NCBI GenBank assembly: GCA_028717225.1
Contig: JAQUOF010000001.1
Span: forward strand, 30,322 to 94,321
DNA: 64,000 nt
From: Patescibacteria group bacterium
GTDB taxonomy: Bacteria; Patescibacteriota; Patescibacteriia; UBA2591; JAQUPP01
Direction of reading: 5' to 3'
Shown: positions 16,040 to 53,013 of the stretch, piece after piece
Position numbering within the stretch: the stretch's first letter is position 1
Layout of the letters: every line of letters starts with the position of its first letter
Position numbers and translations under genes: made by a program
The notes under the pieces: model-generated
What the model was told of the DNA's origin: nothing
Database searches by the model: none
The model's input: the letters and a program-made list of their open reading frames with translations, nothing else

Positions 16040-18619
16040 TTAAACCACTAAATTAATTAATTTTCCGGCGATAAAAATTGTTTTTTTAATTTTCTGTCCG
16101 TTTAAAAATTTCTGGATTTTCGGACTGTTGAGGGCAATTTGATTTGCTTCTTCTTCGGTAATACCAACCTGGATTTTAATTGAATCTCTTATTTTGCCGT
16201 TAATTTGAACAACTAAAACAAAATCTTTTTCCTGAATTAATCGGGGATCAAATTCGGGCCATTGTTCTTGAAAAATACTCTTCTTATTATTGACGTTAAT
16301 TTTAGACCAAAGCTCGTCGCAAAGATGAGGGGTGATAGGAGACAATAATAAAAGTAAAGTTTTAATATCCAGAATATTCGGTGATTTTTCCAAAGCATTT
16401 AAATATTCCATTAAAAAAGCGACTGTAGTATTGAATTTAAAATTCTCAATATCTTCGCTTACTTTTTTTATTGTCTGATGTCTTAAACGCTCCAGATCAG
16501 GATTTGGTCCGCCAGCTGGCGGATTAGAAATTAGAAATTGAGAATTAGAAATTACAAGATTTCTGACTCTTGTCAGAAATCTTGCCACTCCTTCAATGGT
16601 TTGAGTATTCCAGGCAATTGGCTGGTCAAACGGCCCCATAAACATTTCATAAAGCCGCAAGGTGTCAGCGCCATATTTTTTAATAATTTCATCCGGATTA
16701 ATAACATTGGAAAAACTTTTACTCATTTTTCTGCCATCTTCAGCTAAAATCATTCCGTGTGATCGCCTTTTTAAATATGGCTCGTCGTTTTCCGCAATGC
16801 CGATGTCGTATAAAAATTTATACCAATAACGGGAATAAAGAAGATGCAAAGTTGTGTGTTCCATTCCGCCATTATAAATATCAACCGGCAGCCAATATTT
16901 CATTTTTTCAGGACTGGCCAAAGTTTTATCATTTTTAGAATCAAGATAACGGATAAAATACCAATTTGAACCGGCCCAATTCGGCATAGTATCGGTTTCT
17001 CTTCTTGCCCAAGCGCCGCAACGCGGACATTTTACTTTTATCCAATTCTCACATTTGCTGAGCGGCGACTCGCCGGTTCCTGATGGCTGATATTTTTTAA
17101 GATAAGGCAATTCAACCGGCAAATTTTTTTCTTCAATCGCCATCCAGCCGGGATTTAATAATTCTCCCTGATTAAATTCTTTACAATCCGCTTCTTGTTT
17201 TTTGCTTTTTATTTTGTCAGCGCATTTTTGGCAAAAAACCAATGGAATCGGTTCGCCCCAATAATGCTGGCGGGAAAAAACCCAGTCGCGCAATTTATAA
17301 TTTATTTTTAATCCGCCTGATTTTTCCAGAGTCAATCTTTCGGTGATTTTTTTTCTTGCTTCAACAGAAATTAAATTTGAAAATTCTTCAGAATTAATTA
17401 AAACCCCTTCTGATTCAAAGGCCTCTAATAATTCATTATTAGTGCCCTTTTTCGCGGCTTTATGATTTTGATCAGGTTTAATTACTTCAATAATTTCCAA
17501 TCCGTATTTTTTGGCAAAATCAAAATCTCTTTGATCATGAGCCGGAACAACCATAACCGAACCTCCGCCATAAGCGGCGATCACGTAATCGCCGAGAAAA
17601 ATCGGCACTGATTTTTTATTAATCGGATTGACAGCATAAAGTCCTTTTAATTGAACGCCTGTTTTTTCTTTTGCCAAATCGGTTCTTTCCATATCTGATT
17701 TTTCTTGAGATGCTTTAATATATTTTTCCACTTCTTCCAAATTTTTAACTTTTAATTTTAATGTCTCAATCATTTTATGTTCCGGCGCGATTACCAAGGC
17801 CGTGACGCCATAAATCGTGTCAACGCGAGTTGTAAAAACTTCAATAAATTGTTCTTCCGCTGAATCAGAATCTTTAATTAAAAATTTTAAATTCGTTCCT
17901 TCGCTCCGTCCGATCCAATTGATTTGCTGAGTTTTTATTTTTTCCAAATAATCAACTGTTTCCAATTCTTTAAGCAAGCGATCGGCATATTCGGTAATTT
18001 TAAGCATCCATTGTTTCATTTGCCGCCTTTCGGTTTGAGCGCCGCAGCGTTCGCATTTTCCTTGAACCACTTCTTCATTTGCCAAACCGATTTTGCATTT
18101 CGGACACCAATTAATCGGAATCTCTGATTGATAAGCCATGCCTCGTTTAAACAATTGGATAAAAATCCATTGGGTCCATTTATAATATTTCGGATCAGTG
18201 GTATTAATTTCTCTTGACCAATCAAAAGAAATTCCCAAAGATTTAAGTTGTTTTTTGAAAACAGCAATGTTTTGGGCCGTAATTTTCGCCGGATGAATTC
18301 CTTTTTTAATGGCGTAATTTTCGGTCGGCAGGCCAAAAGCGTCCCAACCCATGGGATAAAGGACATTTTGCCCTTGCATTCTTCTCTTTCTGGCCAAAAC
18401 ATCCAGGGCTACATAACTTCGGCAGTGACCGACATGAAGACCGTCTCCCGAAGGATAGGGAAATTCAACCAAAATATACTGTTTGGGTTTTTCCGAAGAA
18501 TCTTGGGCCTGATAAAGTTTATTTTTATCCCAAAATTTCTGCCATTTTTTTTCTATTTTGGCAAAATTATAAACTTCTTTCCTTTTGGTTAATTTTTCGA
18601 GAAAAGTTCTATTTATCAT
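16040..18619 (-). CDS. leuS: Leucyl-tRNA synthetase
   Basis: HIGH motif (HVGH), KMSKS motif, editing-domain signatures, 859 aa; carries the in-frame palindromic insertion encoding ISNSQFLISNPPAGGPNPD. Confidence 0.95.
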   Translation of the reverse strand: MINRTFLEKLTKRKEVYNFAKIEKKWQKFWDKNKLYQAQDSSEKPKQYILVEFPYPSGDGLHVGHCRSYVALDVLARKRRMQGQNVLYPMGWDAFGLPTENYAIKKGIHPAKITAQNIAVFKKQLKSLGISFDWSREINTTDPKYYKWTQWIFIQLFKRGMAYQSEIPINWCPKCKIGLANEEVVQGKCERCGAQTERRQMKQWMLKITEYADRLLKELETVDYLEKIKTQQINWIGRSEGTNLKFLIKDSDSAEEQFIEVFTTRVDTIYGVTALVIAPEHKMIETLKLKVKNLEEVEKYIKASQEKSDMERTDLAKEKTGVQLKGLYAVNPINKKSVPIFLGDYVIAAYGGGSVMVVPAHDQRDFDFAKKYGLEIIEVIKPDQNHKAAKKGTNNELLEAFESEGVLINSEEFSNLISVEARKKITERLTLEKSGGLKINYKLRDWVFSRQHYWGEPIPLVFCQKCADKIKSKKQEADCKEFNQGELLNPGWMAIEEKNLPVELPYLKKYQPSGTGESPLSKCENWIKVKCPRCGAWARRETDTMPNWAGSNWYFIRYLDSKNDKTLASPEKMKYWLPVDIYNGGMEHTTLHLLYSRYWYKFLYDIGIAENDEPYLKRRSHGMILAEDGRKMSKSFSNVINPDEIIKKYGADTLRLYEMFMGPFDQPIAWNTQTIEGVARFLTRVRNLVISNSQFLISNPPAGGPNPDLERLRHQTIKKVSEDIENFKFNTTVAFLMEYLNALEKSPNILDIKTLLLLLSPITPHLCDELWSKINVNNKKSIFQEQWPEFDPRLIQEKDFVLVVQINGKIRDSIKIQVGITEEEANQIALNSPKIQKFLNGQKIKKTIFIAGKLINLVV
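16497..16553. repeat. Palindromic element copy (core TCCGCCAGCTGGCGGA at 16508-16523) with flanking TTAGAAA heptad repeats, in-frame inside leuS
   Basis: Perfect 16-bp palindrome with GC content far above the surroundings; one of six copies in the window; translated in the leuS frame as NPPAGGP. Confidence 0.85.
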
Positions 18620-31034: not shown

Positions 31035-31060
31035 CGGGATGAACTTGCCCCGCCACTTTT

Positions 31061-31131
31061 GGGCCCGTAGGTAAGTGGTATACCGGTACATTCGCATTGT
31101 ACAGTCCCGAGTTCGATTCTCGGCGGGTCCA
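31061..31131 (+). tRNA. tRNA-Ala (anticodon CGC) with G3:U70, embedded in an 11-bp flanking inverted repeat
   Basis: Acceptor GGGCCCG/CGGGTCC (G3:U70 Ala identity pair), anticodon stem GTACA/TGTAC, loop TTCGCAT, T-arm CCGAG-TTCGATT-CTCGG; flanked by CCCCGCCACTT (31048-31058) and AAGTGGCGGGG (31134-31144). Confidence 0.8.
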
Positions 31132-31189
31132 TAAGTGGCGGGGTGAAGTAATACGCAATATTTTGTCCCGATTTTGTTAAAATTCAAAA

Positions 31190-31438
31190 ATGTTTAACAT
31201 TTATATTTTAAAATCATTGAAATTTGGTAAATACTATATTGGCAGTTGTGAAGATATCACAACGAGATTAAAACAGCATAACACTGGAAAGACAAAATCA
31301 ACAAAAAGATTTATGCCATGGGAGCTTGTTTATAAAGAAAGCTTTAATACTCGAAGTGAAGCTGTAAAAAGAGAGCAACAATTAAAATCATGGAAAAGTA
31401 GAAAGGCCTTAGAAAAATTAATAAAGGAATATTTTTAA
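31190..31438 (+). CDS. Stand-alone GIY-YIG nuclease-domain protein
   Basis: GKYYIGSCED...R..QHN...E..LK motifs of the GIY-YIG fold; 82 aa with no additional DNA-binding domain. Confidence 0.75.
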   Translation: MFNIYILKSLKFGKYYIGSCEDITTRLKQHNTGKTKSTKRFMPWELVYKESFNTRSEAVKREQQLKSWKSRKALEKLIKEYF

Positions 31439-31448
31439 GACGACAGTT

Positions 31449-31543
31449 CTCCCGATTTTGTTCCCGCCTTTAGCGGGATTACAAAATCGAGGATCCACGA
31501 TATCACCCTAAATTATAAATTTGAGTGATATCGGGAGATTCTG
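31449..31543 (+). ncRNA. Candidate structured RNA element: two adjacent stem-loops with nested inverted repeats between the GIY-YIG and MazG-like genes
   Basis: SL1: CGATTTTGT-[TCCCGC-CTTTA-GCGGGA]-T-ACAAAATCG; SL2: CGATATCAC-19 nt loop-GTGATATCG; outer CTCCCGAT/ATCGGGAG pairing; neither has a canonical U-tract. Confidence 0.3.
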
Positions 31544-31577
31544 CCTAGGTCCATAAAAATCATTTTAATTTGCGTTT

Positions 31578-43645: not shown

Positions 43646-43770
43646 GTCAACCCCCACACCAAACTTAGCGTTTGATTTACGTATCGCAAAAATCAGAAGG
43701 CGAAGCCGCTTCGCTTTTATCCCCTTATAAAAAAAGCCTCGCATTGAGTTGTGGTGTGGGGGTCAACCCC
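43646..43770. mobile_element. MITE-like composite inverted-repeat element (GTCAACCCCCACACC ... GGTGTGGGGGTCAACCCC) carrying an outward promoter; paralog of 61814..61963
   Basis: Terminal inverted repeats CCCCCACACC/GGTGTGGGGG with GTCAACCCC at both ends; internal GC hairpin GCGAAGC-C-GCTTCGC; sits in a divergent intergenic region. Confidence 0.45.
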
Positions 43771-43784
43771 TTTTATTTTTATTC

Positions 43785-43812
43785 TTGACAAAACCGCAAA
43801 ATTTGTTATTCT
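43785..43812 (+). promoter_or_regulatory. Sigma70-like promoter for the PQQ-repeat protein gene
   Basis: TTGACA (43785-43790), 16-bp spacer, TATTCT; lies inside the over-extended tracked ORF, supporting the downstream start. Confidence 0.5.
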
Positions 43813-43842
43813 GGTAAATAGTTATTTAAAAAATTCGCCTGC

Positions 43843-43858
43843 TCCGCCAGCTGGCGGA
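43843..43858. repeat. Palindromic element copy (TCCGCCAGCTGGCGGA) in the 5' UTR of the PQQ-repeat gene
   Basis: Same 16-mer as the other five copies; located between the promoter and the SD (AAAGGAGG) of the ATG at 43916. Confidence 0.8.
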
Positions 43859-43915
43859 TACGGCGTGACAAATCCGCCTAAGCTCAAGAAGCTACGGCGT
43901 AATAAAGGAGGAAGA

Positions 43916-45358
43916 ATGTTGAATACAGTGAAATCCGCCTTTGGCGGAAAAAATAAATTTTTTGGTTTAGTTCTGGTTGCTTGGAGTTCTTTAATTTATG
44001 CGACGAATTGGCCAATGTTCCAAGGTGATGCGAAACATACCGGCCGTTCTGATGTGATCGCAGCACAAACAAACAATCTGCTCTGGAAAATAAATTTAGG
44101 AGTAGAATGTTCTCCTCTAAGCAGCCCGATTATTGGCTCGCTTAGCGGTCAAGAAAGAATCCTTTTGGGTACAGAAAGCGGCATTTATATTGTTGATTTA
44201 AAAGGAAATTTGGTCGGATTAATTGATTCTGGCTATTCCATTAAAACTACGATTGCGGCTTTAAATGATTTTATCTATTTTGGAGCAAAAGATTCTTTTA
44301 TTGTTTGGAATGCGGATAGCACAAAATGCCGGTCATATTATTTGGGAAACGGAAGCAATATTTCACATCCAACTCTTTTTAACGGCAAAATTTATGTCCA
44401 TGCCACCAACAAACTTTGGTGCTTTAATGACAGCGCTTTGGAATGGACATCTAATGATTTGGATAATGGCAACAGCCCTTCTTCAGCCATTGCCGTGGAT
44501 GACAGCGGTAATATTTATGCCGCCACCTTGAGCAATACTCTGGCCTGGTATGATTTTCGTCTTTATGCTTTTAATCCTAATGGAACGCAGAAGTGGGTGT
44601 ATGAGGGTTTTAGTTTTGAACCGGGTGGCATTTGTATGACTCCGACTGTCGGACCATCAAACGAAATTTTCGTCGCTACTCTTTGTGATGCCGGCTGGCC
44701 TTCGAGTCTTTATTCAATAAAAAATGGCTCAAAACGTTGGCAGCAAGGGGCAAACATCTATTACTTATCTCCGGCAATTTTCCAAGACAAAATTGTCTAT
44801 GGCAGCAAAGAAGGATTAAATGCGCGATTGATTTCTAACGGCAATTCTCTTTGGCAATATCCGACTGCGAGCCCGATTACCATTTCTTCTCCGGCTATTG
44901 GTGCTGATGGAACAATCTATATTGGCACTGACGGCGGGATTGTTTTGGCAGTCAGTAAAGACGGAACTCTGAAATGGCAAAATGACACTCAAGAAGGACA
45001 ACTATGTTCTCCTGCCATCGGTGATGATAGCACGGTTTATATTAATTCTTCTACTGGAAAACTTTTCGCCTACCGCCAACCATTCGGAATTGAAGAAAAA
45101 AATGAAACGGAAAAAGAAATTTTTAAAGCCATACCAAACCCATTAAACCTGGAAACGGAAATTCGCACTTCTGATAATACAATTCTTTTAATCTATGGAC
45201 TTAACGGTCAATTGATTAGAACCTTGTCTGATTTTCAGTTCTGCCAAACTTATTATAAAACTTCTTGGAATGGCCGAGATAATCAAGGAAAACTAGTTGC
45301 TTCCGGAATTTATTTTTGTCAGCAAAACGGTAGATTAAAACTGACCGTTATCAGATAA
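43916..45358 (+). CDS. Secreted PQQ-like beta-propeller repeat protein with C-terminal T9SS-type sorting-domain-like module
   Basis: Signal peptide MLNTVKSAFGGKNKFFGLVLVAWSSLIYA then WPMFQGDAKHTGRS (PQQ-repeat family N-terminal motif); C-terminus IPNPLN...LLIYGLNGQLIRTL...SWNGRDNQGKLVASGIYFCQQNGRLKLTVIR parallels the 4979..5866 tail; start trimmed from the tracked 43751. Confidence 0.7.
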   Translation: MLNTVKSAFGGKNKFFGLVLVAWSSLIYATNWPMFQGDAKHTGRSDVIAAQTNNLLWKINLGVECSPLSSPIIGSLSGQERILLGTESGIYIVDLKGNLVGLIDSGYSIKTTIAALNDFIYFGAKDSFIVWNADSTKCRSYYLGNGSNISHPTLFNGKIYVHATNKLWCFNDSALEWTSNDLDNGNSPSSAIAVDDSGNIYAATLSNTLAWYDFRLYAFNPNGTQKWVYEGFSFEPGGICMTPTVGPSNEIFVATLCDAGWPSSLYSIKNGSKRWQQGANIYYLSPAIFQDKIVYGSKEGLNARLISNGNSLWQYPTASPITISSPAIGADGTIYIGTDGGIVLAVSKDGTLKWQNDTQEGQLCSPAIGDDSTVYINSSTGKLFAYRQPFGIEEKNETEKEIFKAIPNPLNLETEIRTSDNTILLIYGLNGQLIRTLSDFQFCQTYYKTSWNGRDNQGKLVASGIYFCQQNGRLKLTVIR

Positions 45359-45422: not shown

Positions 45423-45998
45423 CTAACAGGCCAAATAAACAACTTTTATTTTTTCTGATTTTATATGGAAATTTTTAATCAAATCTTTTTTTGATTTTTC
45501 CGAATCTGTAATGATTTTTTCCGCGCGCCGCAAGGCATTTTTCAAAATTAAAATAAAAAATCCGTGTTTGAAGGAATATATAAACTTTGCCAAAGAATTT
45601 TTATGTTGAGTCGGGTATTGCAGTAAGGTCAAATCATGAATCGTCACCACAAACCGGCCGAAGTAAAACAGGGGAACATTAAAGTGAAGAAAGTGAACCA
45701 AATCAAGGCGTTGAGAGGCGAGTTGCTTGGGAAATAGAACCTGCTCTTGCCAGGAATACCAGGGGTAATCGGCTAAAACCTTGTGAAAATGAGGGTTTTG
45801 GGGCTGATATAGATTAAAGCCTTCTTGTCGGAGGAAAATAAAATAATCGTCTTTTTGATTAGACTTTTCCAAATTAGCAATTAATTCCTGAGTGTAGCGC
45901 CCAATTCCTTTGCCTGTTGGGCCAAAAAATCTGGCGTCTATTCCAATTTTCATAAAGTTTTGTAAATTTCTTCTGTTTCTTGGGCGCATTTTTCCCAA
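45423..45998 (-). pseudogene. Truncated GT4 glycosyltransferase paralog (N-terminal Rossmann half only), tandem partial duplicate of the adjacent full-length gene
   Basis: 191 aa, >90% identical to residues ~10-115 of the 45950..47080 product, then diverges and stops where the full-length gene has its inter-domain linker; overlaps the upstream gene by 49 bp. Confidence 0.45.
45625..45957. repeat. ~333-bp direct repeat (copy 1) of the GT4 N-domain coding region; copy 2 at 46725..47057
   Basis: Near-identical stretches, e.g. CACCACAAACCGGCCGAAGTAAAACAGGGGAACATTAAAGTGAAGAAAGTGAACC in both copies, offset 1100 bp. Confidence 0.75.
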
Positions 45999-47080
45999 GA
46001 ATATTTTTTAATTTGTTCGCTGCCTTTCTGAATTAATTCTTCGCGAAGATTTTTGCTTTCTATAATTTGGTTCATAGTCGCAGCCATTTCTTCTATGTTT
46101 TTAGGATTAAAATATAAAGCGGCTGAACCGTAAATTTCAGGCAGGGGTTGATGTTTTGAGGCAATTACCGGCAAACCGAATTTCATTGCTTCCAAACCGG
46201 GCAGGCCAAAACCCTCAGACAGAGAAGGGAATACATAAGCCAAACCATTTTTATAAAGCCAGGCTAATTTTTCATCAGAAGCCTGACCGGGGAAAATAAC
46301 TTTTTCTTCCAATCCTAATTCTTGGGTTAATTTTTTTAAATTGTGATAGAAATAATCCATTTTCCCGACCAAAATTAAATGAATTTCCGGGTGTTTGGAT
46401 AAAACAATTTTAAAAGCCTTGATTAAACGTTCTAAATTTTTGTGTGGATAAGCATTACCGACGTACAATAAATAGGAATTTGGTCCGCCAGCTGGCGGAT
46501 TGGAATTTGGAATTTCCACTGACGCAAGCGCCGCTTCATAAGTTACAGAGATTTTTTTCGGATTAATTTTGTATTGTTTCACAATTGAGTCTTTTATAAA
46601 GTTAGAAACCGTAATAATTTTTTCCGCCCGGTATAAAGCATTCTTAATAATCAAGTAATAAATAATTTTTTTGAAATAAAAAGTTAATTTACCGTGGGTT
46701 GAAGCTTTTGGTGTTGTTTGATTATGAGTCAAATCATGAATTGTCACCACAAACCGGCCGAAGTAAAACAGGGGAACATTAAAGTGAAGAAAGTGAACCA
46801 AATCAAGGCGTTGAGAGGCGAGTTGCTTGGGAAATAAAACCTGCTCTTGCCAGGAATACCAAGGATAATCGGCTAAAACCTTGTGAAAATGAGGGTTTTG
46901 AGGCTGATATAAATCAAAGTTATCCTTACGGAGGAAAATAAAATAATCGTCTTTTTGATTAGACTTTTCCAAGTTAGCAATTAGTTCCTGAGTGTAGCGC
47001 CCGATTCCTTTGCCTGTTGGGCCAAAAAATCTGGAGTCTATTCCAATTCTCATATTATTATAAAATTTAGGGGTTGACAA
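45950..47080 (-). CDS. GT4-family (GT-B fold) glycosyltransferase
   Basis: C-terminal EGFGLPGLEAMKFGLPVIAS (GT4 E-x7-E region); 376 aa; in-frame palindromic insertion encoding EIPNSNPPAGGPNS in the inter-domain linker. Confidence 0.85.
   Translation of the reverse strand: MSTPKFYNNMRIGIDSRFFGPTGKGIGRYTQELIANLEKSNQKDDYFIFLRKDNFDLYQPQNPHFHKVLADYPWYSWQEQVLFPKQLASQRLDLVHFLHFNVPLFYFGRFVVTIHDLTHNQTTPKASTHGKLTFYFKKIIYYLIIKNALYRAEKIITVSNFIKDSIVKQYKINPKKISVTYEAALASVEIPNSNPPAGGPNSYLLYVGNAYPHKNLERLIKAFKIVLSKHPEIHLILVGKMDYFYHNLKKLTQELGLEEKVIFPGQASDEKLAWLYKNGLAYVFPSLSEGFGLPGLEAMKFGLPVIASKHQPLPEIYGSAALYFNPKNIEEMAATMNQIIESKNLREELIQKGSEQIKKYSWEKCAQETEEIYKTL
46475..46515. repeat. Palindromic element copy (core 46484-46499) with GGAATTTGG direct repeats, in-frame inside the GT4 gene
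   Basis: GGAATTTGG-TCCGCCAGCTGGCGGA-TTGGAATTTGGAATTT; an identical arrangement occurs at 47894-47934. Confidence 0.85.
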
Positions 47081-47462: not shown

Positions 47463-48701
47463 TTATTTTTTGCCAAGAGAAAAGATAAAAATTTCACGCC
47501 AAACTTCTTGATTGGCTCGGGCGTAAATAATTGATTGCCGCTTGGTCGATTTAATAATCGGGTAACTTGCCACAGAATCGGGCAAAATGTTAACTGTCTG
47601 CCAACCCATTTTATCAATCTCCGGCAAAATAAATTCGGAGAAAATTCCGTTATTTTGTTTTAAGTCCTGATAAATCGGGAAAATCATCACCACTTGCCCA
47701 TTTGGTTTTAAAATTTTTTGAAATTCTTTAAAAGCGCCAATGTATAAATCTGACAATTTAGACATTATGATCAGCAGTTGAGCCTTTAAGCTGGAAATTT
47801 TGGTTGGACCCAAATATGGCTCGGCAACAATTAAATCAATTGATTGAGGATCTATTTTTTTAGAAATTTCTTTAACATCAGTCTGGAAGATTTGGAATTT
47901 GGTCCGCCAGCTGGCGGATTGGAATTTGGAATTTTTTATGAGCCAGTCTAAATTTTGTTGAGTGTCTTTAATCGCCTCTGGGTTTAAATCGGCGCCAATA
48001 ATATTTTTATAACCCATCAAGGCCGCTTCTTGTAAAATTGTGCCCGCACCGCAAAAAGGGTCTAAAATCACTGCTTTTTTATCTAACTCGCCTGCCAAAT
48101 TAATCATAATTTTAGCCAATTTCGGCGGTAAAATTCCCTGTTCCATTGACCGATTTGGCCGGCCGAAATCACGAAAGCCGTATTCTTTAAAATCCTGACA
48201 AGTCAAAGTTCTGCCGAACAAAAACCCGTTTTTCTCGGCAAAAAATACAAATTCCGCGCCGGTTTCCAAAAGCTTGTTTGTTTGAACAATAACCGAAGAA
48301 AGCGCATCTTCGCGAGAAGTAACCCAGCGGGAAGAAATTCCTTTTTCTTTAAGATCTTTTTTTAAATTCAAAGCCAAATTTTTAATTAAATTTACGATTT
48401 GAGAGATTGAGGCCTGATGGTCTAAACGATAAACACTGAATCCGAATCTGACCTTGGCTGATTTTTCGGAAAACAAATCAGCCAGATTTTTTAAATCCTG
48501 GTTTGGCAAAATTTTGCCGATTTTAATCGTTCCGCCCAACCTGTTTTGCAAATACGCGAAATCAATTTCTTTATTTCCGGGTAAATCTATGATTAAAACT
48601 TCTTCTGATATTTTTTTAATCTCAAACGGGCCTGTGAGTATCTTTAAGATTTCAGCTATTGACAAAGTTGGATTATTGCCTAATATAAGAAAATATGTCA
48701 T
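47463..48701 (-). CDS. THUMP/UPF0020-type RNA (guanine-N2) methyltransferase (Trm11/RlmL-like)
   Basis: DPFCGAGT SAM motif I, IGADLNPEA, EPYLGP (motif IV variant); palindromic element inserted in-frame, encoding NSKFQSASWRTKFQIFQ between motifs III and IV. Confidence 0.7.
   Translation of the reverse strand: MTYFLILGNNPTLSIAEILKILTGPFEIKKISEEVLIIDLPGNKEIDFAYLQNRLGGTIKIGKILPNQDLKNLADLFSEKSAKVRFGFSVYRLDHQASISQIVNLIKNLALNLKKDLKEKGISSRWVTSREDALSSVIVQTNKLLETGAEFVFFAEKNGFLFGRTLTCQDFKEYGFRDFGRPNRSMEQGILPPKLAKIMINLAGELDKKAVILDPFCGAGTILQEAALMGYKNIIGADLNPEAIKDTQQNLDWLIKNSKFQSASWRTKFQIFQTDVKEISKKIDPQSIDLIVAEPYLGPTKISSLKAQLLIIMSKLSDLYIGAFKEFQKILKPNGQVVMIFPIYQDLKQNNGIFSEFILPEIDKMGWQTVNILPDSVASYPIIKSTKRQSIIYARANQEVWREIFIFSLGKK
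47894..47934. repeat. Palindromic element copy (core 47903-47918) inside the RNA methyltransferase gene, read in a different frame (SASWRT) from the leuS/GT4 copies (PPAGGP)
   Basis: GGAATTTGG-TCCGCCAGCTGGCGGA-TTGGAATTTGGAATTT. Confidence 0.85.
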
Positions 48702-51637: not shown

Positions 51638-51785
51638 TTTAATGACTAATTAGTCTAATTGATCTAATTAACCTAAATAAATCCCAATGACTCAATGACC
51701 CAAAAATTTCAGACATTGGGCATTTGGTTATTAATTATTGATTAGGTTAATTAAAAATTAGGTCAATTGGTCATTTTTACATTCT

Positions 51786-51857
51786 GCCTCCGTAGCTCAA
51801 AGGATAGAGCACTGGTCTTCGGAACCAGGGATACGGGTTCGATTCCTGTCGGAGGCA
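51786..51857 (+). tRNA. tRNA-Arg (anticodon TCG)
   Basis: Acceptor GCCTCCG/CGGAGGC, anticodon stem CTGGT/ACCAG, loop CTTCGGA, T-arm with TTCGATT; no encoded CCA. Confidence 0.8.
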
Positions 51858-51958
51858 TATAAACGATTATAGACCCCTTAAAATTGTTAATTTAGCAGTA
51901 ATTTGGCTTATTCTCCTCTTTAATTTTTATTTTTGATTTTTCAATTTTAAATTTTTTC

Positions 51959-52009
51959 GCCCCCTTAGCTCAATGGTAAATCCGCCAGCTGGCGGACTCT
52001 TAAGCAATC
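51959..52009 (+). pseudogene. tRNA-Lys-like remnant: 5' acceptor/D region plus anticodon loop, with the palindrome TCCGCCAGCTGGCGGA (51981-51996) replacing the D-stem/anticodon 5' stem
   Basis: GCCCCCTTAGCTCAATGGTA matches the first 20 nt of tRNA-Lys at 52064 (1 mismatch); ...CTCTTAAGCAAT matches its anticodon loop and 3' stem; no T-arm or acceptor 3' strand. Confidence 0.45.
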
Positions 52010-52063
52010 AATTATTATAATAAAATTAGATTTCTTTAAAAACTTAATTAGCAAATAATATAA

Positions 52064-52134
52064 GCCCCCATAGCTCAATGGTAGAGCAGTTGCCTCTTAA
52101 GCAATTGATATAGGTTCGATCCCTATTGGGGGTA
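52064..52134 (+). tRNA. tRNA-Lys (anticodon CTT)
   Basis: Acceptor GCCCCCA/TGGGGGT, D-arm GCTC-AATGGTA-GAGC, anticodon stem GTTGC/GCAAT, loop CTCTTAA, T-arm ATAGG-TTCGATC-CCTAT. Confidence 0.8.
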
Positions 52135-52140
52135 TTTTAT

Positions 52141-52215
52141 ACCTTAATTTAATGGTAAATCCGCCAGCTGGCGGACTCTTAAGCAATTGACGAAGGTCTG
52201 ATTCCTTCGGGGGTA
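52141..52215 (+). pseudogene. Second tRNA-Lys-like remnant carrying the palindrome (52160-52175) with a divergent T-arm-like hairpin
   Basis: Shares the 37-nt block AATGGTAAATCCGCCAGCTGGCGGACTCTTAAGCAAT with 51969-52005; the acceptor and anticodon stems cannot pair. Confidence 0.4.
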
Positions 52216-52219
52216 TATT

Positions 52220-52256
52220 AAAAGACCGCATATCAATTTAGGATATTCGGTCTTTT
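52220..52256. terminator. Bidirectional terminator hairpin after the tRNA cluster
   Basis: AAAGACCG-19 nt loop-CGGTCTTT; adjacent to the stop at 52264 (-). Confidence 0.55.
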
Positions 52257-52263
52257 AATATAA

Positions 52264-53013
52264 TTATTTAGAAGACATTTGCCAGAAAAATTTAAATATC
52301 TGTTTCATAAATTCGCTTAATTCTTTACTCTCAACAATAAAGGCAAAATTTTCTTTTTCCGAGAGAATAATGGAAATTTTATTTTCGTATATTTGAATCA
52401 AGCTGTTGAATATTAAATTTTTAGGTAAAAATTTTACTTCGCGCATTAATCCTTTGTCTGCGGCATAAAATTCCCATTCGCTTGAATGAAATTCTTTATC
52501 TGTAAATTGACGCAAATCTTTGCGCAATATTTTTCTCTCAATTCTTCGGTCAGCGAAATGCCTTGTATATGTTTTTCCAAAAACTTGCAATATATCTTTA
52601 ATGGGAGAGAAGGTCATAACGGTTGTATTTTTATAATTCAGAATATCTTCAAATACTTTTTTTACCCCTTCTCTGCCTTCGTAAAATTTTAATTTCGGCT
52701 TGAATTTAGTCTCAGAAAATATATTTATAAAATCCGGCAAATAACTTTCGGCCAGATTTTTTTGTTTTTCAAGGCTCTCAATTAATGTTTTAGGATTTTT
52801 TGCCCTGAATGTTTTTGTGTATGATTTTGAGTCAGTTTCAACCAGCCCTTGATTATTTAACTCCTCAAGTATTTTGTAAACGGTTGTTCTAAGAACATTG
52901 GCTTTCTTGGCTATTTCGGTCGCCGTAGCCGATCCTAACTCTAAACAAGCCAAATAAACCTGAGCTTTATTTTCATTAAATCCTATTTTTTTGAGCAATT
53001 CTATAAAATTCAT
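52264..53013 (-). CDS. TrmB-family transcriptional regulator (second paralog)
   Basis: N-terminal wHTH (AQVYLACLELGSATATEIAKKANVLRTTVYKILEELNNQGLV); 249 aa. Confidence 0.7.
   Translation of the reverse strand: MNFIELLKKIGFNENKAQVYLACLELGSATATEIAKKANVLRTTVYKILEELNNQGLVETDSKSYTKTFRAKNPKTLIESLEKQKNLAESYLPDFINIFSETKFKPKLKFYEGREGVKKVFEDILNYKNTTVMTFSPIKDILQVFGKTYTRHFADRRIERKILRKDLRQFTDKEFHSSEWEFYAADKGLMREVKFLPKNLIFNSLIQIYENKISIILSEKENFAFIVESKELSEFMKQIFKFFWQMSSK

Follow-up and report, generated by a model that had tools for sequence, protein, structure and literature searches.

Palindrome-bearing tRNA-Lys remnants on both sides of an intact tRNA-Lys gene in a Patescibacteria group bacterium

A contig of a Patescibacteria group bacterium (JAQUOF010000001.1) carries an intact tRNA-Lys(CTT) gene between two broken tRNA-Lys pieces, R1 upstream and R2 downstream, each of which contains the same 16-nt palindrome, TCCGCCAGCTGGCGGA. 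We analyzed the locus within a stretch of 64,000 nt of this contig (the window, to whose first letter all positions refer unless another source is named). In our best explanation, which we consider fairly probable, R1 and R2 are the dead leftovers of a once-working tRNA-Lys gene that came to lie there through the activity of a mobile cassette or a homing process. This explanation draws on the anatomy of the two pieces, their failure as tRNAs, their origin from an old allele, their decay and mosaicism, and the recurrence of the layout at other tRNA genes. By analogy with these other genes, the layout might be the eroded scar of a tRNA gene that was replaced by a cassette encoding a small GIY-YIG nuclease; the order of events is likewise a suggestion. 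Genomes of Patescibacteria are tiny and seldom carry redundant tRNA genes, and a damaged tRNA gene should therefore come at a high cost.

Anatomy of the tRNA-Lys locus

The features of the locus are as follows (ORF, open reading frame; MFE, minimum free energy).

51785-51858, plus strand: intact tRNA-Arg(TCG) (ARAGORN; Rfam, 69.1 bits), heading the locus in the order PilT - tRNA-Arg - tRNA-Lys
51959-52012, plus strand: R1, a 5' pseudo-fragment of tRNA-Lys(CTT), recognized by comparison with the live gene and without a hit to the tRNA covariance model; gene positions 1-22 (51959-51980), palindrome (51981-51996), positions 31-46 (51997-52012)
51981-51996: palindrome TCCGCCAGCTGGCGGA of R1, in place of GCAGTTGC
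52013-52063, plus strand: AT-rich spacer of 51 nt between R1 and the live gene, with no ORF
52064-52134, plus strand: intact (live) tRNA-Lys(CTT), 71 nt, CCA not encoded (ARAGORN; Rfam, 73.1 bits)
52135-52141: spacer TTTTATA of 7 nt between the live gene and R2
52142-52215, plus strand: R2, a 3' pseudo-fragment of the old tRNA-Lys(CTT) allele, recognized by comparison with the live gene (covariance model 13.7 bits, E=9.4); gene positions 5-22 (52142-52159), palindrome (52160-52175), remainder (52176-52215) with the anticodon loop, the 3' strand of the anticodon stem, the variable region, a decayed T-arm and the 3' acceptor strand
52160-52175: palindrome TCCGCCAGCTGGCGGA of R2, located by motif count
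52214-52262: hairpin with 21-nt arms AAAAGACCG...CGGTCTTTT, found by repeat search and folded in the MFE structure

R1 consists of gene positions 1-22 and 31-46 and misses the T-arm and the 3' acceptor strand. It matches the live gene at 20/22 and 14/16 nucleotides, respectively. R2 consists of positions 5-22 and 31-71, without positions 1-4, and matches the live gene at 13/18 nucleotides over positions 5-22 and at 15/16 over positions 31-46. These identities bear out the preliminary description of the locus, made from the sequence without database searches, which had derived both pieces from tRNA-Lys. For R2 that description had listed a T-arm-like hairpin and a GGGGGTA 3' end; both are there (GAAGG TCTGATT CCTTC, then GGGGGTA), and positions 5-22 have to be added. 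It had also pointed to a shared 37-nt block, AATGGTAAATCCGCCAGCTGGCGGACTCTTAAGCAAT, of which there are exactly two copies (51972-52008 and 52151-52187), against zero expected from shuffles. In full, the direct repeat measures 46 nt with 93% identity (51963-52008 / 52142-52187), because R1 and R2 overlap in tRNA sequence.

In R1 and R2 alike, the 8 nt GCAGTTGC are replaced by the perfect 16-nt palindrome. These 8 nt comprise the last two nucleotides of the D-stem 3' strand, the linker base and the five nucleotides of the anticodon-stem 5' strand. The earlier placement of the palindrome, at the D-stem 3' strand and the 5' side of the anticodon stem, needs correction in that the first two D-stem 3' bases are kept in both pieces; the 8 nt are replaced rather than interrupted by an insertion.

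In agreement with the preliminary description, neither piece is recognized as a tRNA. Using the Rfam tRNA covariance model with permissive thresholds (gathering score 29 bits), no hit was obtained for R1, whereas R2 scored 13.7 bits in the window and 22.9 bits in the sister strain L001, both below the gathering score; the covariance-model check that had been proposed for functional non-canonical tRNAs is therefore failed by both. ARAGORN called only the live gene as tRNA-Lys and nothing for R2, and it did not recognize the R1 head joined to the R2 tail either. The D-stem and the anticodon stem cannot form in R1 or R2, and R2 does not keep a conserved T-loop and paired stems across strains, as a functional tRNA would. 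An intron-containing or otherwise non-canonical functional tRNA was rejected given the missing 8 nt, the covariance scores below threshold and the decaying T-loop. Split tRNA genes of the Nanoarchaeum type have non-overlapping 5' and 3' halves that are joined via complementary GC-rich extensions. The palindromes could pair here too, but about 40 nt are common to both halves, 8 nt of the tRNA are absent and joining the pieces gives no recognizable tRNA, so we discarded this option as well. A CRISPR-like array was dismissed, as there are just two copies, 179 nt apart, and the sequence on both sides of the palindrome is tRNA-homologous.

The hairpin at 52214-52262 lies between R2 and a convergent TrmB-like gene and is shared with that gene. 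It is a probable bidirectional terminator, and if it acts as one, R1 and R2 would be inside the tRNA-Arg/tRNA-Lys transcript. A simple terminator scan did not call this hairpin, and a scan for consensus promoters and terminators gave nothing over background at the tRNA-Lys locus. There is no ORF in 51859-52263, and hence no GIY-YIG gene adjoins tRNA-Lys. The genes of the neighbourhood encode PilT, a TrmB-like protein and a radical SAM protein, and no integrase is among them. Exact-sequence look-ups of the TrmB-like protein and of a GIY-YIG protein encoded elsewhere in the window returned no match.

Relatives, the old allele and its decay

The PilT gene, which lies directly upstream, assigns the window to a lineage of Patescibacteria (candidate phyla radiation, CPR). 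The order PilT, tRNA-Arg(TCG), tRNA-Lys(CTT) is shared by related contigs (L006-L010, L013, L014, L018, L020). Where PilT identity is at most 75% (L007-L010, L141, L143 and others), we found one tRNA-Arg and one tRNA-Lys, no palindrome-bearing remnants and no palindrome. The remnant cluster is therefore specific to the group with at least 90% PilT identity, which comprises four PilT protein variants. On this comparison the ancestral state is a single tRNA-Lys gene, and the palindrome-free tandem array that was to be looked for in sister genomes is not seen in the relatives with up to 75% PilT identity, which have one gene. As a separate observation, L008:7126-7240 contains a 13-nt repeat of the tRNA-Lys 5' end (GCCCCCATAGCTT), 9 nt past tRNA-Arg; it is followed by a different, 36-nt imperfect palindrome, with the intact gene about 100 nt further on. 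Remnants of the tRNA-Lys 5' end with hairpins thus arose more than once.

The live tRNA-Lys(CTT) sequence is identical in the sister strains L001, L147 and L144, while the remnants differ. In L001-L003, whose PilT is identical to that of the window, they are less decayed: the tRNA parts on either side of the palindrome in the R1 of L001 are 100% identical to the live gene, and R2 in L001-L003 has the canonical T-arm GAAGG TTCGATT CCTTC, followed by AGGGGGTA. L147 and L006 (96% PilT identity) have an extra upstream fragment, R0, which consists of GCCCCCTTAGCTTAA, the hairpins CTCCGAC..GTCGGAG and TCCCGAC..GTCGGGA, and TGGATAAA. R0 and R2 agree in the pair T7-A66, in GCTT/AA(GC) for the D-stem and in GAAGG/CCTTC for the T-stem, where the live gene reads A7-T66, GCTC/GAGC and ATAGG/CCTAT. 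We joined the 5' part of R0 to R2 and restored GCAGTTGC in place of the palindrome, since GCAGTTGC fills this slot in the live gene of the window and in most relatives (L008-L010, L141, L143). The reconstructed old allele is a perfect tRNA-Lys(CTT) cloverleaf according to ARAGORN. As the differences between the alleles are paired and preserve the stems, both alleles must have worked for some time. Judged from their sequences, R1 and R2 derive from this second, once-working tRNA-Lys(CTT) allele, which is presumably older than the live gene. The idea that R2 was inherited vertically and that the live gene clearly arrived later was abandoned because each allele shares some characters with the outgroups and differs from them in others.

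In L144 (a 640-kb contig) the region is rearranged exactly at the edges of the cluster, with breakpoints just after tRNA-Arg and just after R2. Downstream of PilT only tRNA-Arg and a terminator are present, and the tRNA-Lys cluster lies in a different neighbourhood (L144:11048-11330 and L144:17500-18060 were compared). There it reads R0, live gene, TTTTATAC and R2, without R1, and its R2 carries the double hairpin in the D-loop in addition to the palindrome. Breakpoints at both cluster edges, together with 46-nt direct repeats of tRNA origin that flank a segment, as is seen at genomic islands, might be taken to indicate that R1 and R2 are attL/attR-like remnants of an integrase-mediated element in tRNA-Lys, nearly all of which was deleted. 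tRNA genes are classical integration sites. Nonetheless we regard this as most unlikely: no integrase is encoded in the neighbourhood, the segment between the repeats is 133 nt long and essentially the live tRNA, with neither recombinase nor cargo, the intact gene is not formed from a repeat (unlike the situation at tRNA-targeting islands), and both repeats carry the disabling palindrome. The suggestion of att-like partial duplications in the preliminary description came closer to the geometry than its alternative, but it has the lack of an integrase and the 7 nt between live gene and R2 against it.

The dead pieces are decaying, and they appear to exchange sequence with each other and with the live gene. 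The R2 T-loop occurs in four variants in five sequences (TTCGATT, TCTGATT, TCCAATT, TTTGATT), and one acceptor-strand base is missing from R2 of the window. At its diagnostic positions R1 reads A7/GCTC/GA in L001, A7/GCTC/AA in L147 and T7/GCTC/AA in the window, a strain-variable mosaic that argues for gene conversion and not for two independent hits. The 5' part of R2 is likewise similar to the live gene (GCTC) in L147 and to the old allele elsewhere, and the spacer between R1 and the gene in the window resembles that of L147 and not that of L001, though the PilT is the one of L001. No R2 copy deviates in the palindrome or in the neighbouring CTCTTAAGCAATTGAC, which would fit homogenization by conversion. 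We further observed that the T-loop of R2 (52197-52203 in the window; also in L001, L006, L147 and L144) is changed in nearly each strain while the T-stem is mostly kept. In this small sample the variation could reflect escape from a nuclease instead of plain decay, an idea prompted by phage T4 SegB, which recognizes a T-stem-loop motif of tRNA genes.

The mosaicism also bears on a plain tandem amplification, in which tRNA-Lys was triplicated and the outer copies were inactivated by the palindrome and then trimmed, with no cassette involved. All copies have the same orientation and are close together, R2 is nearly full length (positions 5-71) and follows the live gene after 7 nt (a normal spacing for tandem tRNAs), and the paired allele differences show that two functional copies coexisted for a time. 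Against this, the spacers are unequal (51 nt against 7 nt), R1 is without its 3' third, R0 represents a further 5' fragment in sister species, and the relatives hold one gene. Moreover, two independent hits on the same 8 nt are improbable unless they are site-specific or spread by conversion, and other tRNAs show the same succession of pseudo-5' piece, live gene and pseudo-3' piece, interrupted by a nuclease gene. We therefore consider simple amplification unlikely. Of the original suggestion of tandem copies disrupted by insertion it stands that dead tRNA copies carry the element. What they form is a 5' piece and a 3' piece with a 46-nt overlap, not an array of full copies, and the assignment of the pieces to the other allele and the mosaic R1 speak against independent hits on tandem copies.

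It might finally be argued that the pieces serve as an RNA scaffold, in which the palindromes pair and the R1 5' strand pairs with the R2 3' strand, so that a stem around tRNA-Lys guides or stabilizes its processing; the GC-rich palindromes flanking Neurospora mitochondrial tRNA genes, or rRNA processing stems, would be parallels. Indeed, the MFE fold of 51950-52265 (-104.7 kcal/mol, z = -6.5) has the palindromes paired over 16 bp, GCCCCC paired with GGGGGU and the cloverleaf nested inside; a tRNA-Ala gene of the window and that of L271 also lie within inverted repeats of 18-20 nt, and the palindrome and the adjoining anticodon segment are invariant between strains. However, two halves of one old tRNA, together with the palindrome, give such a fold in any case, and each palindrome can also fold on itself. 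L144 is without R1 and has no palindrome pair, L267 has only one palindrome, the acceptor and T-arm of R2 are decaying, and the palindrome never varies, leaving no covariation to use. Overall, this function seems quite unlikely.

Other tRNA genes and the dispersed palindrome

Comparable arrangements were found at the following tRNA genes of other contigs.

L267, tRNA-Lys(TTT): GCGCCTATAGCTCAGCCTTGTAGA (positions 1-24), the palindrome in place of 8 nt, CTTTTAAGCTGAT (13 nt), unrelated DNA, a 90-aa GIY-YIG ORF and the intact gene
L162, tRNA-Gly(CCC): the intact gene, followed by a 3' pseudo-copy (palindrome in place of 10 nt between GGTAG and the anticodon loop) and by a GIY-YIG ORF
L169, tRNA-Asn(GTT): a pseudo-copy upstream of the intact gene, with two replacements of 8 nt by 16 nt, TCCGCCGGTCGGCGGA and the palindrome
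L207: CAGGTTCGA, the palindrome and CTGCTGCGCCCACC, located past the 3' end of a tRNA that the end of the contig truncates and whose sequence it repeats
L271, tRNA-Ala(TGC): a pseudo-5' piece, a GIY-YIG ORF bounded by inverted repeats, the intact gene in an 18-nt inverted repeat, and a pseudo-3' piece
L270, tRNA-Ala(TGC): a pseudo-5' piece with hairpin inserts, a GIY-YIG ORF and the intact gene

The same 8-nt slot is replaced in L267 as in R1, and the homology stops at the same place. In L207 it is the T-loop of a 3' pseudo-copy that holds the palindrome. L270 and L271 are free of the palindrome and were found via homologues of the GIY-YIG protein encoded at 31190-31438 of the window; one hairpin of L270 is close to the second hairpin of R0. 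Compared with its intact gene, the pseudo-5' piece of L271 matches at 24/24 nt, followed by hairpin inserts and positions 25-35, and the pseudo-3' piece at 34/34 nt. All palindromes found in a tRNA context are in pseudo-copies, next to the tRNA that is copied, which is itself intact or only partly assembled, and no live RNA gene was seen to be disrupted. Weaker matches of tRNA flanks in L155 and L258 turned out on inspection not to be tRNA-related.

The GIY-YIG ORF sits between the pseudo-5' piece and the live gene in L267, L270 and L271, a place that is taken by the 51-nt spacer in the window. GIY-YIG domains were confirmed in the ORFs of the window, L267, L162 and L203 (Pfam, E ~1e-15 to 1e-17), and the homologues behind L270-L277 have precomputed PF01541 hits. 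The 120 palindrome loci listed span 730 kb and hold six GIY-YIG ORFs, 4/6 of them no further than ~400 nt from the palindrome. Inverted repeats enclose the ORFs in the window, L271 and L274. We also observed the same GIY-YIG ORF between atpA and atpG, with no tRNA near (L274:1485-1749 and L277:1480-1745); in L274, perfect 18-nt inverted repeats overlap its start and stop codons. Its location away from tRNAs suggests a mobile unit bounded by inverted repeats that is not restricted to tRNA loci.

Elsewhere in the window, tRNA-Ala(CGC) (31060-31132) lies in a 20-nt inverted repeat (31048-31067 / 31124-31143). It is followed by an 82-aa GIY-YIG ORF (31190-31438) that is flanked by a direct repeat, TCCCGATTTTGTT, and 24-nt inverted repeats. 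After this ORF come a hairpin, TCCCGCCTTTAGCGGGA, and a probable 3' remnant of tRNA-Ala (31537-31556, 15/20 nt). From its sequence, the region 31048-31556 looks like a less eroded example of the same process.

The palindrome itself is a dispersed element, with six copies in the window against 0.01 expected. The four copies outside the tRNA-Lys locus are located as follows.

16508-16523: in frame in the leucyl-tRNA synthetase gene (16040-18619, minus strand; ..ISNPPAGGPNPD..), with heptamer repeats on either side
43843-43858: in the 5' leader of a secreted-protein gene, amid other GC-rich hairpins
46484-46499: in frame in the gene of a GT4/GT1-type glycosyltransferase (45950-47080, minus strand; ..NSNPPAGGPNS..)
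47903-47918: in frame in the gene of a UPF0020 methyltransferase (47463-48701, minus strand; ..QSASWRTKF..)

The claim that the element enters RNA genes as well as coding sequences, in the manner of Rickettsia palindromic elements (RPEs), can thus be kept for the three protein genes; as said, no live RNA gene is disrupted. In the essential leucyl-tRNA synthetase gene, the region 16440-16580 holds the palindrome and four AATTTCT-type heptamers in frame (..NSQFLISNPPAGGPNPD..). GC-rich hairpins are dense in the leader and at the start of the secreted-protein gene (43700-43950), namely GCGAAGCCGCTTCGC, the palindrome (outer arms CGCC/GGCG) and, within the signal-peptide region (43934-43948), an in-frame related palindrome of 15 nt, TCCGCCTTTGGCGGA.

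The glycosyltransferase is encoded by a single ORF in the window and L006 and by two overlapping ORFs in different frames in relatives (L007/L008/L009). The insert of palindrome plus heptamers is located exactly at the ORF junction and restores one frame; in L007 this spot is occupied by another nested hairpin. A 191-aa ORF beside this gene (45423-45998, minus strand) is a duplicate of the N-terminal glycosyltransferase domain, an arrangement shared by L144 and L147. In the methyltransferase gene the copy is embedded in heptamer repeats, as are the other palindromes in coding sequence. L001, despite its identical PilT, has (AAATTCC)5 and no palindrome here, the 10 nt there corresponding in frame to 16 nt in the window, and L006 has neither heptamers nor palindrome (window 47860-47960 compared with L001:295-509 and L006:2213-2421). 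The palindrome was probably gained or lost via recombination between heptamer tracts shared with the glycosyltransferase copy.

For the metagenome scan we used the palindrome followed by YTNNNR, a pattern that favours right flanks resembling an anticodon loop. The palindrome occurs in at least 120 metagenome stretches, mostly low-GC contigs, in many different contexts, and it is a member of a widespread mini-hairpin family in low-GC contigs resembling Patescibacteria (CPR). A scan of viral contigs gave 55 matches, mostly chance occurrences in high-GC coding sequence plus a few terminator-like phage hairpins, and was of no help for the tRNA question. In mid-GC phage contigs (L095, L098, L103, L105, L113, L133, L139) the identical 16-mer is flanked by AAAT/ATTT near a conserved 'ctactttagtag'; these copies look like a shared terminator-like hairpin and not like chance.

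Comparing filled with empty sites, 8 nt are lost in tRNA-Lys, 10 nt in the methyltransferase gene and in tRNA-Gly of L162, and 3 nt in L207, and no target-site duplication was seen at the palindrome sites compared. An origin of the palindrome from a tRNA anticodon stem was considered and rejected: 1/52 tRNA-Lys genes has such a stem (L007, GCGGA/TCCGT), and the 16-mer also occurs in coding sequences without a tRNA. tRNA-Asn commonly has a GGCGGA/TCCGCC anticodon stem, and we treat its resemblance to the palindrome as a coincidence.

The recurrence of pseudo-5' piece, hairpin-bounded GIY-YIG ORF, live tRNA and pseudo-3' piece makes a mobile cassette the most likely origin of R1 and R2. Such a cassette would break or displace the old tRNA gene while a replacement copy is supplied, so that the leftovers end up around the live gene, with the 5' piece or pieces upstream and the 3' piece 7 nt downstream. 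The dead pieces have been colonized by short GC-rich hairpins (here the 16-nt palindrome in place of 8 nt, in sister species also a double hairpin in the D-loop), and gene conversion among R1, R2 and the live gene continues to reshuffle them. The nuclease gene would since have been deleted from the tRNA-Lys locus.

Several points weigh against this explanation. The tRNA-Lys locus has no GIY-YIG ORF, integrase or transposase, and its spacers measure 51 nt and 7 nt; lacking such a gene, the cassette origin is argued by analogy from other loci. An overlap of ~46 nt is accounted for by no one known mechanism, and a nested arrangement is not cleanly separable from a tandem paralogue with partial copies; single-crossover integration of a small circle, one-ended repair, or the tandem paralogue plus partial copies are candidate routes. 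Both alleles differ from the consensus of the relatives by similar numbers of characters, so that either may be the newcomer. The invariance of the palindrome and the anticodon segment while the T-loop varies could mean selection instead of gene conversion. In addition, the metagenome sample was chosen for the palindrome with a biased pattern, which makes the enrichment figures rough.

A bolder proposal, which we put forward tentatively and consider somewhat unlikely, is that of a new hairpin-bounded mobile family in Patescibacteria, ranging from autonomous members with an 80-96-aa GIY-YIG protein to ORF-less forms down to the 16-nt palindrome. It would prefer tRNA genes and persist via the replacement copy that it installs ('tRNA-swap' homing), leaving overlapping 5' and 3' fragments; the tRNA-Lys cluster would be an eroded example and the palindromes repaired break sites. 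The two tRNA-Lys alleles differ in the D-stem, the T-stem and the 7-66 pair, which may be compatible with allele-specific cleavage by a nuclease. If the GIY-YIG link is true, this would be a new kind of selfish element with a testable nuclease specificity.

For Patescibacteria, our results point to tRNA genes as recurrent sites of breakage, duplication and replacement, with dead copies quickly taken up by GC-rich mini-hairpins that also sit in frame in essential genes. Such sequences confuse tRNA annotation and pseudogene calls, mark variation at strain level and give rise to short repeats by which rearrangements are driven (as at the cluster edges in L144).

Comparison with known systems

The finding combines two known kinds, mini-palindromic selfish DNA and tRNA-gene remnants. 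Our literature search returned no description of the palindromic element or of the tRNA-fragment pattern in Patescibacteria/CPR, and a paper on group I introns in tRNA genes (PMC13011429) makes no mention of palindromes, pseudogenes or tRNA-Lys.

The palindrome resembles RPEs in being repeated palindromic DNA of a reduced AT-rich genome that is found between genes and in frame in essential protein genes, where the insert is tolerated as a short peptide (PMC1779305). The comparison holds because the palindrome is in frame in three protein genes of the window; its six copies thus cover coding and non-coding DNA (three in frame, one in a leader, two in tRNA fragments). The likeness lies in repetition and placement, and RPE families measure 100-150 bp against a 16-nt core with a few heptamer repeats here. 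The palindrome also replaces 3-10 nt and occurs repeatedly in tRNA pseudo-copies and near GIY-YIG genes.

REP/BIME elements, RAYT-associated repeats and MITEs are likewise short GC-rich hairpins with many dispersed copies, sometimes nested, and with a possible role in transcript stability or termination. However, REPs are imperfect extragenic palindromes of 20-40 nt next to a conserved GTAG or CGTC tag, and the six copies share no such tag (GTAG is present only as part of the tRNA D-loop, in R1 of L001), half of them are intragenic, and 16 nt is shorter than typical REPs or MITEs. In contrast to MITEs and other transposons, target bases are lost and there is no target-site duplication.

The GC-rich palindromes and double hairpins of fungal mitochondria (Neurospora PstI palindromes, yeast GC clusters, Allomyces) belong to AT-rich compact genomes, flank tRNA genes, insert in genes and are linked to recombination. 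GC-rich hairpins near tRNA genes are common to both systems, though fungi belong to another domain of life, the two are not known to be related in sequence, and the palindromes described here are located inside tRNA fragments and not merely beside tRNA genes. Islands with attL/attR sites share with the locus the tRNA-derived direct repeats that flank inserted DNA and the preservation of a working gene; they differ in that here no integrase is found, the insert is essentially the tRNA alone, the overlap is 46 nt and both repeats are disabled.

SegB of phage T4 is a free-standing GIY-YIG homing endonuclease that recognizes and cuts tRNA genes and drives replacement of a neighbour's tRNA region (PMC2330249). 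SegB homing leaves no overlapping tRNA fragments. The proteins described here have 80-96 aa, consist of the catalytic domain only, are encoded by ORFs bounded by inverted repeats and also occur between atpA and atpG, and the tRNA-Lys locus is without such an ORF. Common to both systems is a small GIY-YIG ORF among or beside tRNA genes (here at L267, L270, L271, L162 and the tRNA-Ala gene of the window) that is present in some strains and absent from others.

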